A stretch of 64,000 nucleotides of DNA, from IMG/VR virus record IMGVR_UViG_3300017782_000001. One strand, 5' to 3'. The DNA is from a virus. Position numbers and translations under genes: made by a program. This document shows, piece by piece, positions 1,070 to 47,904 of the stretch. Position 1 is the first letter of the stretch; every line of letters begins with the position of its first letter. A model generated the notes under the pieces. It was not told the origin of the DNA. It was given only the letters and a program-made list of their open reading frames with translations, and made no database searches.

Positions 1070-1140
1070 TTTCCTTTTCCATTTTATAGATCTATTCTAC
1101 CATAGTTTGTACCGATTGTACAGGAAAAAGTGCAATTAAA
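1070..1140 (-). promoter_or_regulatory. early promoter, class I (conserved leader + upstream TGCA)
   Basis: TGTACA-17-TAGAAT with TG extension, then AGATCTATAAAATGGAAAAGGAAA. Confidence 0.8.
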
Positions 1141-4813: not shown

Positions 4814-4891
4814 TGGTCGGAGTGGTAGGATTCGAACCTACGATCTCTACGTCCCAAACGTAGCGCTTTAGCCAGGCTAAGCTACACTCCG
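4814..4891 (-). tRNA. tRNA-Pro(UGG)
   Basis: CGGAGTG acceptor, CTACG-TTTGGGA-CGTAG anticodon arm, GGTTCGAATCC T-arm, encoded CCA. Confidence 0.95.
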
Positions 4892-4988: not shown

Positions 4989-5066
4989 TGGCCCGTCCTG
5001 TAGGACTCGAACCTACGACCTACAGCTTAGAAGGCTGTTGCTCTAATCCAGCTGAGCTAAGGACGG
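4989..5066 (-). tRNA. tRNA-Arg(UCU)
   Basis: CCGTCCT/AGGACGG acceptor, ACAGC-CTTCTAA-GCTGT anticodon arm, GGTTCGAGTCC, encoded CCA. Confidence 0.95.
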
Positions 5067-5687: not shown

Positions 5688-5694
5688 GATTTTC

Positions 5695-5765
5695 TTTCCT
5701 TTTTCCATTTTATAGTACTATTATACCACAGTTCTTCTGAATTGTAAACCATTAAATGCACTTTT
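5695..5765 (-). promoter_or_regulatory. early promoter, class I
   Basis: GTTTACA-17-TATAAT, leader ATAAAATGGAAAAAGGAAAG, upstream TGCATTTAAT. Confidence 0.85.
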
Positions 5766-12848: not shown

Positions 12849-13403
12849 CTATAAGGTATTTTTATATATCTCTATAGCTTTAGGTAGTTCTTGATCTAAG
12901 AGATATTCATTATAGTCATCTTTATCTGTTTGGAACCGGATACCAATACCGCCATGATCAATCCATTTTTTAATGTTGTCAGGCTTATCGTCGATAAGAA
13001 TGTTTGGTGTACCTTTAAGTTTACACCTAGCATACTTATGTTTGTTACTGGTAAAGATAAGATTTTCCATATCTTGTGGCATCCAACCATGATCTTGTAG
13101 CCAAACTCGCTTCCAATAAGCTGAGTTCATTGTATCGTTACGAAGAGGAGATGAACAGATACCCCAACCCATACCAGCCTGTTGAGCCATAAATTGAGTT
13201 TCTCTGATAATAGCCTTTGAAATATTATAACCATTTTCATCCCAAAACACTGGTAACTTATTAAAGAAGTCAGTGTTATGTAAATCCATTAAAGATTTTT
13301 CTTTTTCTTTAATAGACTTCCAGTGAACGGCACCGCAGCTATCAGCCCAGAGACCGAAGAAGTCTGCAATAACGCCGTCCATGTCTAAATATATGTTAGC
13401 CAT
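12849..13403 (-). CDS. HAD 5'(3')-deoxyribonucleotidase
   Basis: YLDMDGV, K..W, LIDD. Confidence 0.85.
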   Translation of the reverse strand: MANIYLDMDGVIADFFGLWADSCGAVHWKSIKEKEKSLMDLHNTDFFNKLPVFWDENGYNISKAIIRETQFMAQQAGMGWGICSSPLRNDTMNSAYWKRVWLQDHGWMPQDMENLIFTSNKHKYARCKLKGTPNILIDDKPDNIKKWIDHGGIGIRFQTDKDDYNEYLLDQELPKAIEIYKNTL

Positions 13404-13654
13404 TATTTGTTCCTCCAAGCTTCAATTGTTGATCTATAAGATGATGGTGAAAGCTTTTCCCATACATCAAGAGGAGCAAGACCTTGCTGACGTAACTCTT
13501 TATAGTAATTTACAGTAAGCTTATTGTTGATCAAGAATTTCTTGAACTTGGCTTTAGTAAATGGACCTTTTGAGTACTTAAATCGAGCCACAATTTCACC
13601 ATCATATCTTAGATATTCTGAGTCGTTTGTGAATTTTTCTTTATAATAAAACAT
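13403..13654 (-). CDS. hypothetical early protein
   Basis: Start MFYYK after conserved leader. Confidence 0.7.
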   Translation of the reverse strand: MFYYKEKFTNDSEYLRYDGEIVARFKYSKGPFTKAKFKKFLINNKLTVNYYKELRQQGLAPLDVWEKLSPSSYRSTIEAWRNK

Positions 13655-13660
13655 TTTTCT

Positions 13661-13730
13661 TTTCCTTTTCCATTTTATAGTACTATTATACCACAGTTTT
13701 AATGGTTTGTACACCATTAAATGCATTTTA
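13661..13730 (-). promoter_or_regulatory. early promoter, class I
   Basis: GTGTACA-17-TATAAT, leader ATAAAATGGAAAAGGAAAAG, upstream AAATGCATTT. Confidence 0.85.
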
Positions 13731-18490: not shown

Positions 18491-18555
18491 TTTCCTTTTC
18501 CATTTTATAGTAATATTATACCACAGTTTTATTGAAAAGTAAACTAAAAAGTGCG
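18491..18555 (-). promoter_or_regulatory. early promoter, class I
   Basis: GTTTAC-TATAAT, leader ATAAAATGGAAAAGGAAA. Confidence 0.8.
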
Positions 18556-19138: not shown

Positions 19139-19145
19139 AATTTAG

Positions 19146-19225
19146 TTCCTTTTCCATTTTATAGATCTATTATACCATAGTTTTTATAAAAAGTAAAGGA
19201 AAAAATGCATTTAATTGCATTTAAT
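19146..19225 (-). promoter_or_regulatory. early promoter, class I
   Basis: CTTTAC-TATAAT, conserved leader, two upstream TGCA boxes. Confidence 0.8.
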
Positions 19226-30025: not shown

Positions 30026-31252
30026 CTATTGCCCCGGCTTTTCCCATCCTTTTAATATATCCGGCGAAAAGTTGTTGGTAGAAAATTCCATTCTATCAAC
30101 AATCTTAACCGCATCACCACCAAGTTTGTCAATGGCCACATATCCTTCAGCGCCAGTGACTTTGAAACCTTTACGAGTCTTTACAAATGTATCAATATTG
30201 TGGACCCTTTGTAGTATATTTATAAGTTTTAGTTTTGCAAGAACGATGGTTCTTTGTAATTCAAACATCATTTCTAAATTTTTTTTGTTTTGAGAAGAGA
30301 AAAATACAAGAAGAGAATCTGCTACAGCCTTTTGAGCAGCTTTACCTTTATCGGTTTTTCTTTTATCTGCTTCTTTTTTATACTTATCTTCAATAAATTT
30401 TATTAGTGCTGCTACTCTTTTCCTAGGATCAGGTGGAATTTGTCCTTTACGAACATAGCTATTTCCGTGAGTTTCAATATTTTTTGCAAGATCTTGATTT
30501 TTTTCAAGTTGTCTTAATGTTGATCCTGAAATTTTATTGAAAAGTTTTCCTGCCTGTGACAAGTATGCACTGACTTCTTTAGTATCTGACTTTGACATAG
30601 TTGCTTTGCTTAAATCTCTAAGCATTGCATCCTGTGACCATACAGCTTTACTGGTTTTTAACTTTGAAACATCTACTCCATAAGAAGCTTTCATAGATTC
30701 AAATGTTTTGCCTTTATATGTGGTGTGCCATACGATTCCAATTTTTGCTGACTTGACTTCCTTGGCCATTTGAGTACCAGCCGGTACTGCATAAACAATC
30801 GTATTAGGGTGGAAAGTGACATATGATTTTCCGCTAATTTTTTTAGTTTTAACATCCCCTGGACCATATAAAAAGTCTCCTTGTATTACACCCTTAATTC
30901 CTAAAGAAGGTAAAAGCTTTAGTGCAATTTTAAGCTTATCAGACAAATCACCTGAAGTGTCAGCATCAACATCAGCAGCAGTCTTATAGACTTTAGGATT
31001 GACGTTGAAGATACCCTTTTTTGCGACAAAGAATTTGCCATCTCGTGGATCAACACCAGCAAAAATGGCAGGAGCGCCATCCCACTTAGTAGAGATTTTT
31101 CCAGCATGTTCTCCTCCTAGCATATCTCTTAAAGATCTTAATGCAAGAATAGCTTGACGAGTACCATTTACACCACCATAAATTACTTTGTCCTCAATAT
31201 GAGTCATGTGAGTATTTTTATTTTCTGTAATATATGATGAAAACGTGTCCAT
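30026..31252 (-). CDS. ligase-fold (KxDG) nucleotidyltransferase-like protein
   Basis: TKWDGA, QGDFL, EGYV, VKIV match ATP-dependent ligase motifs I, III, IV, V; MDTFSSYITE start. Confidence 0.6.
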   Translation of the reverse strand: MDTFSSYITENKNTHMTHIEDKVIYGGVNGTRQAILALRSLRDMLGGEHAGKISTKWDGAPAIFAGVDPRDGKFFVAKKGIFNVNPKVYKTAADVDADTSGDLSDKLKIALKLLPSLGIKGVIQGDFLYGPGDVKTKKISGKSYVTFHPNTIVYAVPAGTQMAKEVKSAKIGIVWHTTYKGKTFESMKASYGVDVSKLKTSKAVWSQDAMLRDLSKATMSKSDTKEVSAYLSQAGKLFNKISGSTLRQLEKNQDLAKNIETHGNSYVRKGQIPPDPRKRVAALIKFIEDKYKKEADKRKTDKGKAAQKAVADSLLVFFSSQNKKNLEMMFELQRTIVLAKLKLINILQRVHNIDTFVKTRKGFKVTGAEGYVAIDKLGGDAVKIVDRMEFSTNNFSPDILKGWEKPGQ

Positions 31253-32223
31253 TATATCTCTTTCGTATTTCTCGTAATTTTAGCCATTGGAAAAATACCA
31301 ATCCTAGAATTTTGTAAAATTAATGAACCATATGTACCCTTGCGCTTATTGTATCGAGCAACAAGAATTGCCTCATAAGGTCCTTTAGGAGTTTGTCCTA
31401 CTATTCCTTTATGAGTTGAAGTGATAATATATGCTCCACCTTTTTTCTTAAACTGCATTGTTCCTTGGTGAAATTCATCTACGTTATTTACATCTACGCT
31501 TTTTGATCCTGCTTTAATACCATAAACAGATTTTTGAATAAGATCGTTTGACTTAATTTTTCTATAATACGTATCTCCTGAGCCTAGGCCTCCAGGATGC
31601 TTTGCGATTACGTCTTTCATAAAGCTTTCTATTTCTTTACTTCCTTTAAGATCTGTAACACCGCCGTATTGTTGAAAGTCTTTTGCTGTTCTACCTGCTT
31701 TATGAGATATATGAGCAACCATATCGCCCTTTAGATTTACAATAGCAAAATCTGACTTTGGATCTCTACCTCCTGGGTTAGGAGTACTAATTATTCCAGC
31801 GCATTCTACGGTACGTTTACCGACCTTCAACATAATAGTTGGCTGCGCTTCTTTTGTTAAAACTTTATTGAGTGCGGTTGTTGCTAGCTTTAATGCAGCA
31901 TTTTCTGCCGCTACTCCAGATCCTTTACCTTTACCACCAAACTCTCCTGTTTTAAGAAAGTCTTTAGGATAGTTAACATATCCACCGCTTTGAACTTTAA
32001 GCTTTTTACTAAAGCCTTTTGTGTTCATTCCAGCAGCTACATCGTCATATTCAGATTTATCAATCTTTGTTTGTTTACCGTTTGCTAATGCAAAGTCTTC
32101 ACCTGTTTTTATTTTCATAACAAACAATTCACCACGCGACCTGTCTTTTGTAAGATCAGTGTGCTTAAGTACGTTAAATTGTTGCATAACCTTTTCCATT
32201 AAAAAACGTTTGAAGCTTATCAT
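31252..32223 (-). CDS. putative PD-(D/E)xK nuclease-like virion protein
   Basis: AAE...PKSDF...ISHK; MISFKRFLME start. Confidence 0.5.
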   Translation of the reverse strand: MISFKRFLMEKVMQQFNVLKHTDLTKDRSRGELFVMKIKTGEDFALANGKQTKIDKSEYDDVAAGMNTKGFSKKLKVQSGGYVNYPKDFLKTGEFGGKGKGSGVAAENAALKLATTALNKVLTKEAQPTIMLKVGKRTVECAGIISTPNPGGRDPKSDFAIVNLKGDMVAHISHKAGRTAKDFQQYGGVTDLKGSKEIESFMKDVIAKHPGGLGSGDTYYRKIKSNDLIQKSVYGIKAGSKSVDVNNVDEFHQGTMQFKKKGGAYIITSTHKGIVGQTPKGPYEAILVARYNKRKGTYGSLILQNSRIGIFPMAKITRNTKEI

Positions 32224-32250
32224 GCCACTCTCTTTTTTTTATCCTTGTTC

Positions 32251-32258
32251 TATTTATA
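32251..32258 (-). promoter_or_regulatory. T4-type late promoter
   Basis: TATAAATA directly after a terminator and ahead of the 23.7-32.2 kb block. Confidence 0.8.
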
Positions 32259-32259
32259 T

Positions 32260-32286
32260 AAAAACAAAGGGGAGCATGTGCCCCCC
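32260..32286 (-). terminator. intrinsic terminator
   Basis: GGGGGGC-ACAT-GCTCCCC then TTTGTTTTT. Confidence 0.85.
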
Positions 32287-32340
32287 TATGTCCTATAAGC
32301 CTCGCGTTGGAAAAGGAAAGGAAAATAACGCTTGCTTATA
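32260..32340 (-). ncRNA. candidate antisense sRNA targeting the conserved early leader/RBS
   Basis: TATAAGC-aa-GCGTT-[ATTTTCCTTTCCTTTTCC]-AACGC-gag-GCTTATA hairpin plus terminator; loop complementary to TGGAAAAGGAAA leaders. Confidence 0.65.
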
Positions 32341-32348
32341 TATTTGTA

Positions 32349-32669
32349 TTATCGTCTTTCGTATATAAAAGCCTTTAAGACACTAGCATTTTTAATGCCG
32401 CCGACAATATTTCCAAAGTAGTCATATGACACTTCACCTTTTGAGTTACAGAATCTGTAATGTGGATGAACCGCTTTCATTTTTTTATATGGTTTACGTC
32501 CACGAATAACAACACGATATCGTTTGTCACTTTTGCTTTGTTTCAACCAACCATTAAATCGAGAAACCATATGTCTCACCATTTCTAGATCTTTCATATC
32601 AGCGTCGCTATCACGACTAAAGGTACCTATAAAAGAATCTGTTGGATAACGTGGGGCTTGAATTCCCAT
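32349..32669 (-). CDS. hypothetical early protein
   Basis: AGGAG RBS, own promoter. Confidence 0.7.
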   Translation of the reverse strand: MGIQAPRYPTDSFIGTFSRDSDADMKDLEMVRHMVSRFNGWLKQSKSDKRYRVVIRGRKPYKKMKAVHPHYRFCNSKGEVSYDYFGNIVGGIKNASVLKAFIYERR

Positions 32670-32700
32670 TACTATAACTCCTTTTTCAATTGGTAGATCT

Positions 32701-32730
32701 ATTATACCATAGATCTACCTCATTGTAAAC
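32701..32730 (-). promoter_or_regulatory. early promoter
   Basis: GTTTACA-17-TATAAT-AGATCTA, variant leader TTGAAAAAGGAG. Confidence 0.8.
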
Positions 32731-32734
32731 CAAT

Positions 32735-33682
32735 TTATGCACTCATTGCGTATTCTACTGCTTTTTCTGCAGCTTTAACTTTACGTAGTTGGTTGAAACC
32801 AAACCACTGTGAGTGCAATCTATTTTCAGCATTTCGTCCTTGGACATGATCAGTAATAAATGTTACTGAATTAAATGCCTGCCACCAAGTGCCTTCACCA
32901 TACTCTGCACCTGGCTGAGTTTCTAAGACAGAAAGTGCTTGCTTAGCCGAGCGAGAGATTGTGTCAACATTGATTGAGTCAACTTGACCTGAAGTACGAG
33001 GAAACACTTCATTAAGAAAAGCGATATAGTTATCACTTGTCATTTTCTTCGAAGCTAAGAACTGAGCCATTTCTTTGTATTTTGCAAACTTTTCATGTGC
33101 AAGGCCTAGAGTTTGTTTTACACTTTCAGCATCAAATGCTGTGCGGTGACCAACTTTAACTGAACGATCAGCCTTTGACTCAAGTGACATAGTAAGTGTG
33201 TTGTTACATACTACACGGATAGGAGTAAAGCGAATGTCAATTGACTTGCCATATTGATGAGGATTAGAAAAAAGAAGATATGAATCAACTTTATCATCAC
33301 CAAACAAATCAAAAGACTCTTTGACTTTAGCCAAAGCCCATACCATTTGACCACCTTTAAGTGATCCAGCAGTATGCATTTCCATATCACCAGACATGCA
33401 ATATTCTGAGAAGAAATTAAATGCATCGTCATTTTGAACTGGATTCCAGTTTTCGCCAACATTAGTCAAAATTTTCTTGTTATCTTCTCTAACAAGAGAC
33501 TTTAGACCAGTAAGTGTTTTTTCACCATCAATCTCAATAAATGAGTCAAGCTCGCGAACTTTCCAATTTAGTCCAGCTTTTTCTTGCATTTGCTGAGGAG
33601 TAAGATCGTTTGATACAGGAACTCCTAGTCCATGCCACGGAACCTGACCGGCATACGCCATTGTTTCTACTTGATGTGCCAT
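32735..33682 (-). CDS. DUF932 / phage-plasmid TIGR03299-like protein
   Basis: PWHGLG, PVQN, TAGSLKGG, TPIRVVCNNTL, TWWQAFNSVT. Confidence 0.85.
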   Translation of the reverse strand: MAHQVETMAYAGQVPWHGLGVPVSNDLTPQQMQEKAGLNWKVRELDSFIEIDGEKTLTGLKSLVREDNKKILTNVGENWNPVQNDDAFNFFSEYCMSGDMEMHTAGSLKGGQMVWALAKVKESFDLFGDDKVDSYLLFSNPHQYGKSIDIRFTPIRVVCNNTLTMSLESKADRSVKVGHRTAFDAESVKQTLGLAHEKFAKYKEMAQFLASKKMTSDNYIAFLNEVFPRTSGQVDSINVDTISRSAKQALSVLETQPGAEYGEGTWWQAFNSVTFITDHVQGRNAENRLHSQWFGFNQLRKVKAAEKAVEYAMSA

Positions 33683-33716
33683 AATATATGTCTCCTTAAG
33701 ACTGTGTTTTGGAAAG

Positions 33717-33804
33717 CTTTGCAGTGACTCTTAATCTTAAAAAACTTTGCAGTGACTCTTAATCCTAACCTTTCGGCTCCAGTAAATTTTCTCCAGTAAA
33801 CTTT
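33717..33804. repeat. two direct-repeat pairs in 5' leader
   Basis: ctttgcagtgactcttaatc at 33717 and 33745; ctccagtaaa(t/c)ttt at 33777 and 33791. Confidence 0.9.
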
Positions 33805-33880
33805 TCCTTTTCCATTTTATAGATCTATTATACCATAGTTCTTTTCAATTGTACACCATTAAATGCAATTAAATGCATTT
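33803..33880 (-). promoter_or_regulatory. early promoter, class I
   Basis: GTGTACA-17-TATAAT, conserved leader, tandem TGCA boxes. Confidence 0.85.
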
Positions 33881-33892
33881 TTTTTCATTTTT

Positions 33893-34432
33893 TTACAATT
33901 TTTTTCTTAGTGATTCAAATTTTCTAATCTGTCTTTCATAAAAATTACCCATTTGTAACTTTAACTCAAAGAACCAATCATCTTTAGTGCCTTCAAAGTA
34001 ATTAATACCTTTATCGGTTTTTACCAATTGAAGTTGACCTAAGCCAAGGTTTTGAATAGAAAGATGATGCCAATCAATTGACTCTATAGGTCGATATTCA
34101 ATATTGACTATTTGAGCAGTTTCACCATCAACAGGATTAACTACATAATCAATGAATAGGTATGCTATTTCAGTATTTCTATTTTTTGATAATCTATCTA
34201 CTGAAATAAGATTAGGCATACTAAATTCACGACCAATGTCGCGGGTTTTAACGTCAACCAATACACCTTTGAACGTTACATCTTCAATAGTACGCACGCT
34301 TTTTGGTGCAATACCACCTTGTTCAATAAGTTGATTAACCACATCGTTTTCTATGATATCCGCAATAGCTCGTTGACCTGAGTTATGAGGAACATCGTAC
34401 ATTTTGTACTCAATGTTTGCTTGTATTTCCAT
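33893..34432 (-). CDS. type II restriction-endonuclease-like PD-(D/E)xK protein
   Basis: RTIED...VDVKTR...MPNLIS resembles the HincII/EcoRV-type core. Confidence 0.65.
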   Translation of the reverse strand: MEIQANIEYKMYDVPHNSGQRAIADIIENDVVNQLIEQGGIAPKSVRTIEDVTFKGVLVDVKTRDIGREFSMPNLISVDRLSKNRNTEIAYLFIDYVVNPVDGETAQIVNIEYRPIESIDWHHLSIQNLGLGQLQLVKTDKGINYFEGTKDDWFFELKLQMGNFYERQIRKFESLRKKL

Positions 34433-34459
34433 TAAATTTCCTTTTCCATAATATAAAGT

Positions 34460-34645
34460 GGGGCGGTTAGCCTGACATCTATCCTCCTCGACCGGTTGGT
34501 CCGCCCCTTGAGAAGGATAGGGTACATTCTATTTAAGATTACGGTTCCCTGAGTCGTACCAGACTTGTAAACCTCTGAGACTGTCGATCTTATTAGTGAT
34601 CTCCCTTATTCAGCCTCTCAATCTTTACCTTCGCTATGTCATAAT
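34460..34645 (-). ncRNA. candidate structured RNA with 3' H-type pseudoknot
   Basis: GC-rich non-coding leader with several stems; interleaved 11-bp and 7-bp helices. Confidence 0.5.
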
Positions 34646-34651
34646 ATTTAC

Positions 34652-34720
34652 TTCCTTTTCCATTTTATAGATCTATTATACACTATTTCTTTTGAATTGT
34701 AAAGGAAAAAGTGTATTTTT
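34652..34720 (-). promoter_or_regulatory. early promoter, class I
   Basis: CTTTACA-TATAAT, leader ATAAAATGGAAAAGGAAG. Confidence 0.8.
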
Positions 34721-34723
34721 TTT

Positions 34724-34996
34724 TTAATTAAATGCGATTAAACTTAATAAGAGACTATTTAGTGCGAATCCGATCGCATTAGATACAATGTAAAGAGTAT
34801 CTTTAGCATATATAGCTCTTATCAAGAAGAGTACTAATCCAAGCCATATTAGAAGTATGAAGTTCAATGGCGGGAGATCAGTTGAATATCCCATAATGTA
34901 TCCGATTGATGTCGGAGCCGTTGCACCGTGGATTAGAATCATTCCAACCCAACCGCAGGTTTCTGAAACATTTATTTTTTTTATTTTATTAATCAT
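34724..34996 (-). CDS. small 3-TM membrane protein (PQ-loop/SemiSWEET-like size)
   Basis: Three hydrophobic helices; behind class I promoter. Confidence 0.65.
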   Translation of the reverse strand: MINKIKKINVSETCGWVGMILIHGATAPTSIGYIMGYSTDLPPLNFILLIWLGLVLFLIRAIYAKDTLYIVSNAIGFALNSLLLSLIAFN

Positions 34997-35000
34997 AGAA

Positions 35001-35085
35001 TTTCCTTTCTTTTCCATTTTATAGTACTATTATACACCATTTCTTCTGAAAAGTAAAGGAAAAAATGCAAAAAAGTGCATTTTTA
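35001..35085 (-). promoter_or_regulatory. early promoter, class I
   Basis: CTTTAC-TATAAT, leader ATAAAATGGAAAAGAAAGGAAA, two TGCA boxes. Confidence 0.8.
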
Positions 35086-35105
35086 TATTCAACAAAAACA
35101 ATGGC

Positions 35106-35708
35106 TTAGCAAAAAAGTTCAAAAATAAATTTTTTTTGCCAGCGCCAAGTTAATCGTGGCTGAATAAATTTGTCAAAGGGGATGTTATGTTTTTTACAAA
35201 CCTTTAGTTGGATTGCTTTATCTTCTGGAGTCATTAATGAGGTGTCTGTATATGAGTCACCTACCTGTGAAACTCTTAAACCATTTCTTTCACCTAATCC
35301 CCAAACTTCATCAAAGGAAATCTTTTTTGGATCAGCGTGTGCTACGATAGTGCCATGATCGTTTAGCATTCGTGACATCATTGCAACTTGAGGTTGAGGA
35401 TCAGTATACTGAAGTGGACCGAAGTTTAGAATCCAGTCAGCTTTTCTTCTTAAAAGAAATTCAGCGTTGTGAAGGTCATCGACGATGTCTACGTTTGGAT
35501 GAGATACAAGATCAATACCAATTAAATTTGGAACGTGTTCTTTGAATACATTTCCACCACAGCCTAAGTCAACTACAAGATCAGGCTTTGTATTAGCTAT
35601 TTCTTTAGCTAAGTTTAATCCAGATAATTGTCTGTAGAGTGCTAGGTTTCTTTTTTCAAGTTCATCAGAAGATGAGTACCTTGCAATTATTTGTTCTTTT
35701 TCCACCAC
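35106..35708 (-). CDS. class I SAM methyltransferase
   Basis: VVDLGCG.N...NLIGID. Confidence 0.75.
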   Translation of the reverse strand: MVEKEQIIARYSSSDELEKRNLALYRQLSGLNLAKEIANTKPDLVVDLGCGGNVFKEHVPNLIGIDLVSHPNVDIVDDLHNAEFLLRRKADWILNFGPLQYTDPQPQVAMMSRMLNDHGTIVAHADPKKISFDEVWGLGERNGLRVSQVGDSYTDTSLMTPEDKAIQLKVCKKHNIPFDKFIQPRLTWRWQKKFIFELFC

Positions 35709-47514: not shown

Positions 47515-47532
47515 ATAGCTCTCCTTAAATAA

Positions 47533-47858
47533 GTTGCCGGATTCTGTTTCGAGGCTCCGGCGGGCCCAGAGATTATGCCGCTAGGCGCATCTCAGGAGCA
47601 AAGTTATCGTTTGCATTTACGTTTTTGATTCTCCACTGCCTTCTTGTATCTGTCGATCCTATTTCGCCCCCATCATAATAAGTCTTGCATGCCGCGGTGA
47701 ATAATTGTTTATGCAAATATATTCAACGCAAAATTTTCTAAATTGCCAAAGTAGTACTTCGTCCATTATTACCTCAAGACTTATTATGGTGGAGGCGGCG
47801 GGTACTGCCCCCGCGTCCAGCCTACATCCATCCAGTTTCACTGAATCATTTTTATTTA
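47533..47858 (-). ncRNA. ssrA: two-piece (circularly permuted) tmRNA, tag ANDNFAPEMRLAA
   Basis: Acceptor piece ends CGCCTCCACCA at 47787; coding piece starts GGGGGCG at 47671 (G3.U70 pair); tag ORF 47614-47573; outer ends approximate. Confidence 0.93.
47659..47766 (-). CDS. possible 35-aa peptide starting inside the tmRNA intervening segment
   Basis: GAGGT-aata-ATG; MDEVLLWQFRKFCVEYICINNYSPRHARLIMMGAK. Confidence 0.4.
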   Translation of the reverse strand: MDEVLLWQFRKFCVEYICINNYSPRHARLIMMGAK

Positions 47859-47895
47859 TACTAGTATTATACCATACTTTTTTTTGAATGTAAAC
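47853..47895 (-). promoter_or_regulatory. nested early and late promoters for tmRNA
   Basis: GTTTACA-17-TATAAT (47895-47866) and TATAAATA (47860-47853). Confidence 0.75.
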
Positions 47896-47904
47896 CGCTA
47901 ATTT

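Follow-up and report, generated by a model that had tools for sequence, protein, structure and literature searches.

A conserved pyrimidine-loop hairpin at the 3' end of an early operon in T4-like marine phages is complementary to early-gene leaders and may repress them in trans

Results

The DNA analyzed here, termed the window, is the entire 64,000-nucleotide stretch of IMG/VR record IMGVR_UViG_3300017782_000001. It belongs to an uncultured marine T4-like myophage; the minus strand carries almost all of the genes, and late promoters of the form TATAAATA occur. Its ribonucleotide reductase shares 76% identity with the enzyme of Phage C48C1 and 65% with that of Methylophilales phage Melnitz. 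This phage and its kin are uncultured, abundant ocean viruses, and the OM43-infecting Melnitz phages belong to the same clade. The window also encodes a permuted two-piece alpha-type tmRNA (47532-47898, minus strand; Rfam RF01849, 97 bits, and RF04321, 93 bits), which suggests an alphaproteobacterial or OM43-type host. The accessible part of the paper on the Melnitz phages treats tmRNA at length and also mentions pelagimyophages (PMC9004378). Genes for tRNA-Pro(TGG) and tRNA-Arg(TCT) are found at 4814-4891 and 4989-5066, both on the minus strand. Among GenBank phages, no close DNA relatives were found for the locus described below by megablast, or for its promoter-leader cassette by blastn. 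The features of the locus are as follows.

33803-33855, minus strand: class I promoter (33855-33827) and leader (12/12 match) that open the DUF932 unit
32735-33682, minus strand: DUF932 gene (Pfam PF06067, 4.5e-41), upstream member of the early unit
32701-32729, minus strand: sigma-70-type early promoter (TTTACA, 17 nt, TGgTATAAT), from a promoter scan; 11/12 matches, extended -10
32349-32669, minus strand: 106-aa early gene with the hairpin in its 3' UTR, from the ORF list
32294-32340, minus strand: hairpin 1, from sequence and fold; outer stem TATAAGC/GCTTATA, inner stem GCGTT/AACGC
32309-32326, minus strand: open 18-nt CU loop, ATTTTCCTTTCCTTTTCC (= AUUUUCCUUUCCUUUUCC), complementary to the class I leader and Shine-Dalgarno (SD) region
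32260-32286, minus strand: intrinsic terminator, from a terminator scan and fold; GC hairpin GGGGGGCACATGCTCCCC (32286-32269) and U-tract (32268-32260)
32251-32258, minus strand: late promoter TATAAATA of the 323-aa gene (31252-32223); it follows the terminator and is not part of the RNA

Read on the minus strand from the stop codon of the 106-aa ORF (32351-32349) toward the late promoter, the sequence forms a two-tier hairpin at 32340-32294. Its left arm consists of TATAAGC (32340-32334), AA, and GCGTT (32331-32327), and its right arm of AACGC (32308-32304), GAG, and GCTTATA (32300-32294). A 7-nt linker, GGACATA, leads from the hairpin to the terminator (32286-32260), whose eight pairs (six of them GC), loop of four, and tail TTGTTTTTAT are those of an intrinsic terminator. 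The initial annotation had read this stem, loop, linker, and terminator from the letters, which are identical on the minus strand, and the open 18-nt loop that it described is also what RNAfold gives. The predicted energy is -31.2 kcal/mol (z = -5.65), a stability that not one of 200 shuffled sequences reaches. No other CU-loop hairpin lies on the gene-sense strand anywhere in the window. Searches of Rfam matched no family at the locus, either across the window at gathering scores or across 31900-35200 at E <= 1, and literature searches found no description of such a hairpin element.

The simplest origin for the RNA that carries the hairpin is an early mRNA, of which it would form the 3' end. 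With a hairpin that lies downstream of the stop codon and shares the intrinsic terminator of the mRNA, the locus has the architecture of a 3'-UTR-derived small RNA. The initial annotation had favored a late promoter, TACAAATA at 32348-32341, and had offered a 3'-UTR RNA from the 32701 promoter as the alternative; the alternative is the better fit, and the 32701 promoter is the simplest driver of the RNA. It is very improbable that TACAAATA gives rise to an independent late small RNA. The octamer adjoins the hairpin and differs from TATAAATA at a single position; however, the window has nine copies of it, most of them within genes or -35 boxes, and it has neither the consensus nor the conserved position of a late promoter. 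A start about 6 nt downstream of it would cut away part of the outer stem. Moreover, no such motif is present in the related contigs L016, L057, L194, and L196, where coding sequence enters the hairpin, which contains the stop codon of the upstream gene. Because TACAAATA is common in the window and absent from the relatives, the timing that the initial annotation had proposed, in which a late RNA shuts off early genes, is left without a basis. The late promoter TATAAATA at 32258-32251, which is conserved after the terminator in relatives, marks the early/late boundary. In L016 and L057, the DUF932 gene adjoins the 106-aa gene with no promoter in between.

For the 106-aa protein, Pfam, PHROGs, a PDB profile search, and Foldseek gave no match, nor did tblastn against GenBank phages; its AlphaFold model has a mean pLDDT of 68. 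It belongs to a family of basic proteins that is widespread in aquatic phage contigs, with conserved IG.F and RGR motifs and a C-terminal YIYRR. The 323-aa protein encoded beyond the late promoter has only distant, partial matches in GenBank phages.

The loop is complementary to a motif that recurs in the leaders of early genes. This motif, TGGAAAAGGAAA, is the core of the class I cassette described below. It is present in six exact copies in the window: five in leaders, all of them on the minus strand, and a single plus-strand copy, which is the complement of the loop; at one mismatch or fewer, there are 10 copies versus 0.93 expected. The leader sites named in the initial annotation are all present, and its statement that only one copy lies in the opposite orientation stands, the loop being the sole antisense copy of TGGAAAAGGAAA. 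In addition to the leader of the DUF932 unit, the sites in the window are the following.

13651-13693, minus strand: class I cassette of gene X, best predicted partner (17/18 nt)
1070-1081, minus strand: class I leader, 12/12 match
18491-18502, minus strand: class I leader, 12/12 match
19145-19156, minus strand: class I leader, 11/12 match
34437-34448, minus strand: SD motif of a 179-aa gene without an adjacent promoter, 12/12 match
34651-34662, minus strand: class I leader before a mini-ORF and a structured stretch, 11/12 match
5690-5706, minus strand: variant class I leader TGGAAAAAGGAAAGAAAA, bulged duplex, from the duplex scan
35001-35015, minus strand: variant class I leader TGGAAAAGAAAGGAAA, bulged duplex, from the duplex scan

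A class I cassette runs, in order, through an A/T-rich stem-loop, TKTACA, a 17-nt spacer, TGgTATAAT, agatCTATAAAATGGAAAAGGAA, a few bases, and ATG; alignable cassettes are found at 1102, 5728, 13693, 18523, 19177, and 33835. A 2010 paper on PeSL elements reportedly described promoter-terminator cassettes of T4-like phages as recombination substrates. As defined in the accessible part of a 2014 paper, PeSL cassettes of T4-like phages are repeated units of a stem-loop, a sigma-70-like promoter, an SD, and a start codon (PMC4122927), and the class I cassettes have all of these parts. An exact 19-mer of the leader occurs in 91 stretches of IMG/VR viral contigs and thus marks a whole clade. At the 179-aa gene, the full 12-nt motif serves as the SD without a cassette, which indicates that the motif is not merely a passenger of the promoter cassette.

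Two of these sites bear further description. Gene X (13403-13651, minus strand) is an 82-aa early gene of unassigned function whose product starts MFYYKEKF. On the same strand, about 200 nt of non-coding sequence (34433-34642) lies between a class I leader with a two-codon mini-ORF, AUG-ACA-UAG, and the 179-aa gene. This stretch has the same form in two other lineages (L234:17939-18153; L171:2948-3162) and a shorter, different form in four contigs (L129:4800-4950). It has no Rfam match at E <= 1 and is probably an undescribed structured leader RNA.

Pairing between the loop and the leaders was examined by duplex and cofold calculations. When the whole window was scanned on both strands, class I leaders held most of the top ranks, in line with the expectation of the initial annotation that they would rank highest. 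Across 176 ORF starts, the mean duplex energy is -14.2 kcal/mol for class I start regions, compared with -5.5 +/- 3.3 kcal/mol for all other start regions (p = 0.0005). When the 80-mer is cofolded with the 60-70 nt at the 5' end of each mRNA, class I leaders, which have no structure of their own, gain -6.4 to -14.5 kcal/mol. The gain is far smaller for the controls, at -0.4 (proximal leader of the 106-aa gene itself), -0.9 (late gene), and -1.4 kcal/mol (ribonucleotide reductase gene). Shuffled loops score worse, with p <= 0.001 for simple shuffles in four lineages and p_min values of 0.027, 0.013, 0.005, and 0.012 for shuffles that keep the CC doublets, indicating that base order counts beyond composition. 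Both partners are of low complexity (purine versus pyrimidine, with GG/CC doublets), so the significance within a single lineage is modest under the strict null (W 0.03-0.07). These computations support the conclusion that the loop is selectively complementary to class I early leaders.

The same calculations bear on whether the loop acts within its own transcript. As part of a 3' UTR, it could fold onto the leader of its own operon and set the translation or stability of the DUF932/106-aa message. The units that end in the hairpin all begin with a class I leader (33835 in the window, 7935 in L057), and the leader of the 106-aa gene itself is of class I in L194 and L196. Such a mechanism is also documented for Staphylococcus aureus icaR (PMC3868564). 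However, in four lineages the leader of the hairpin's own operon is never the best partner, ranking 2/8, 5/7, 3/11, and 3/4; in L196, it pairs at -6.9 versus -17.1 for gene X. Within the window, the distal class I leader of the operon pairs with the loop at -14.4 kcal/mol, and the immediate leader, behind the 32709 promoter, gains only the -0.4 kcal/mol given above. Action in cis alone is unlikely, and pairing restricted to the hairpin's own leader is not supported; the proximal leader was rejected as a partner on the basis of its cofold gain.

A partner on the other side of the terminator is less probable still. In T4, the e, soc, 49, and I-TevI genes provide a documented precedent for masking of the ribosome-binding site of a late gene in early read-through transcripts (PMC3014915), and the hairpin is situated just upstream of a late promoter. 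Pairing of the loop with the late start ranges from -4.4 to -9.8 kcal/mol in five lineages, but it is no better than for shuffles, with fractions of shuffled loops at or below the observed value of 0.10-0.95. The cofold gain is -0.9 kcal/mol, and a strong terminator separates the loop from the late gene. An inhibitory leader of the T4 type was discarded as a candidate on these grounds, and we regard this possibility as hardly credible.

Relatives of the locus were collected through its flanking proteins. The same architecture is found at the same site in four other lineages (L016, L056/L057, L112/L194, and L196). In all five lineages, the module follows a homolog of the 106-aa protein with the C-terminus YIYRR and precedes TATAAATA, and in each (represented by the window, L016, L057, L194, and L196) an open pyrimidine loop of 18-22 nt stands directly against a terminator. 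The stems are unrelated in sequence, the loops are always CU-rich, and the fold z-scores range from -5.2 to -8.9. A descriptor that requires a hairpin loop with at least 12 consecutive C or U bases and an adjacent terminator has exactly five matches on both strands of 2.27 Mb of related DNA, namely these five hairpins. This stricter descriptor was used in place of a looser one (any CU-rich loop on a 5-bp stem), which returned mostly noise in antisense coding sequence. Conservation is established here by single-sequence folds and the descriptor scan, since MAFFT could not align the unrelated stems. The hairpin is a real, conserved, and uncatalogued RNA element.

A second, non-homologous CU-loop hairpin is found in a different early operon of a further lineage (L129:5374-5428, L136, L170, L171, and L188). 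Its stem has 15 bp and its loop, UCCUCCUCUUUCCUCUUUUCCAUGUA, has 26 nt; the hairpin is followed by an A-run without a U-tract. Across these five contigs, 3 of its 15 stem pairs are compensatory and none is broken, and the loop holds an exact 11-nt complement of a leader of its own phage, GGAAAGAGGAG.

The hairpin occurs together with class I leaders. Every contig that has the hairpin also has class I leaders, and both are missing from C48C1 (complete), G007 (99% complete), G006, L197, L198, and L202. These phages have early promoters with other leaders, and the last three are the closest by the 106-aa gene. In the more distant relatives L031:2815-2895/L034 and L036:1700-1785/L040, a 106-aa homolog is followed by a CU-rich stretch (..CUCUUACUUCCCCAACU.. 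or ..UUUUCCUCCCUCCCAACU..) without a clear hairpin, a terminator, a tRNA gene, and TATAAATA; no class I leaders were seen in these contigs.

These comparisons also bear on the possibility that the hairpin is a structural or historical element with no regulatory role, whether a 3'-end stabilizer, an aid to termination, or a recombination scar left by an inverted leader. The hairpin adjoins a terminator at the early/late boundary, and PeSL cassettes are known recombination substrates according to the accessible part of the 2014 paper (PMC4122927), as either version of this reading might suggest. However, a neutral loop of 18-22 nt would hardly stay near-pure pyrimidine through five lineages in which the stems have been fully replaced. 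The flanks of the loop show no match to the promoter-leader cassette, and a second hairpin of like kind arose at another site. We consider an element of this sort improbable.

The loops and leaders of different lineages were then compared. The leaders of gene X orthologs end in GGAAGGAAA in the L057 contig, GGAAAGAA in the L194 contig, and GGAAAAGAAA in the L196 contig and the window. The corresponding loops hold exact complements of 11-13 nt to these leaders, with a 17/18 match in the window, and the gene X leader is the best predicted loop partner in the window and in L196. When five loops were crossed with five leader sets and the scores double-centered, none of the 120 permutations scored better than the true assignment. 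Full complementarity to the invariant part of the leader, UGGAAAAGG, is confined to the loop of the window, which pairs well with the leaders of every lineage; the loops of L196 and L171 are not at their best on their own leader sets. Computation supports the view that loop and leaders vary together across lineages, within a sample of few independent lineages whose contigs are fragments; copying at the DNA level between leader and loop could mimic such co-variation. Co-variation of loop and leader in relatives is a check that the initial annotation had proposed.

The CU loop could be a site for a protein with a preference for unpaired pyrimidines (ribosomal protein S1, a cold-shock protein, and a phage factor are examples), and the loop's complementarity to the leaders would then be a by-product of SD-like facing anti-SD-like sequences. 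This reading would accommodate a loop whose composition is kept as its exact sequence drifts, and the basic 106-aa protein of unassigned function is always linked upstream. It does not explain the lineage-matched exact complements of 11-13 nt or the outcome of the permutation test on the diagonal (best of 120). Furthermore, non-pyrimidine positions of the leader pairing (..CCA/CCAU versus UGG/AUGG) are represented in the loops of the window, L016, and L129, and searches with the 106-aa protein turned up no RNA-binding fold. A protein site is rather unlikely. Neither it nor a purely structural element accounts for the matched loop-leader variation.

Discussion

T4-type phages are the textbook example of timed gene expression. 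Our computations describe the structure of an RNA element at the 3' end of one of their early units, its conservation, its uniqueness, its selective complementarity to early leaders, its lineage-matched variation, and its co-occurrence with those leaders. The interpretation that we favor, with a probability of roughly 45%, is that the hairpin RNA represses early-gene leaders in trans. From the sequences, we infer its expression, its pairing in vivo, the repressive sign of its effect, and its timing. Host sigma-70 RNA polymerase would most likely transcribe the element from the early promoters at 32729-32701 and 33855-33827, so that the RNA would exist as the 3' end of the DUF932/106-aa mRNAs and perhaps, after processing, as a small RNA derived from the 3' UTR. 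The open loop would pair with the unstructured, 5'-terminal, purine-rich leader and SD region (..AUGGAAAAGGAAA..) of class I cassettes, which precede about nine early genes, with gene X at 13651 as the foremost target. The resulting duplex would keep the 30S subunit from binding and lower the translation of class I genes as the RNA accumulates. Because the RNA would come from the same class of early promoter as its targets, an off-switch of this kind would need greater stability or processing of the RNA.

A broader version of trans repression is doubtful, though conceivable from the sequences. A single small RNA might act as a master brake on the entire early-gene class, with membership in the regulon conferred by the mobile PeSL cassette. 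Genes shuffled behind such a cassette would be enrolled automatically, and the loop and cassettes would co-evolve.

If repression in trans is correct, it would add an RNA layer to the protein-based early-gene shut-off of T4-type phages by RegA and RegB, as an RNA counterpart of those two proteins. It would also explain why the leader of the cassette, beyond the promoter alone, is so strongly conserved, and it would offer a simple, testable handle on regulation in uncultured ocean phages. If the element is merely a structural 3' end, it is a well-defined new RNA motif and no more. What is new here is the five-lineage architecture, the compensatory second hairpin, the lineage-matched loops, and the absence of the hairpin from relatives that lack the leader.

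Several known systems resemble the proposed one in part. The cuckoo/CcsR (alpha-r14) sRNAs of Alphaproteobacteria consist of two to four adjacent hairpins, each with CCUCCUCCC in its loop (PMC4615179). Like the element described here, they have hairpins with variable stems that display a pyrimidine-rich, anti-SD-like loop. The phage element differs in that it is a single hairpin with a terminator, has UUCC-type loops that vary by lineage, and lies in a phage 3' UTR; with one hairpin, no CCUCCUCCC in its loop, and no Rfam match, it is not assigned to this family. In the icaR mRNA of S. aureus, a pyrimidine-rich anti-SD motif in the 3' UTR pairs with the SD region of the same mRNA (PMC3868564). 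There, the motif acts on its own message, whereas the phage loop has better predicted partners than its own leader.

Within T4 itself, the RegA repressor and the RegB endonuclease silence many early mRNAs at their translation initiation regions, and a 2010 review notes the lack of any characterized trans-acting regulatory RNA in this phage (PMC3014915). The outcome proposed here, global silencing of early mRNAs, is alike, but the agents are proteins in T4 and would be an RNA in this clade. The proposed targets are cassettes of the PeSL kind found in T4-like phages, and the word "antisense" does not occur in the accessible part of the 2014 PeSL paper (PMC4122927).

A further parallel comes from other phages. 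The c4 antisense RNA of phages P1 and P7 (Rfam RF01695), attributed to Citron and Schuster in 1990, is said to block translation of phage mRNA near the ribosome-binding site. Like the proposed element, c4 is a phage RNA that is co-transcribed with phage genes and pairs near a ribosome-binding site. It differs in that c4 uses two short sites to control a single operon (icd-ant) in a temperate phage, whereas the loop described here would act in a lytic T4-like phage on a repeated leader shared by many unlinked genes; no match to RF01695 was obtained in Rfam, and the element is not placed in that family. By analogy, the hairpin RNA would work like both the anti-SD loop RNAs of the cuckoo/CcsR type and the c4 RNA of phages.
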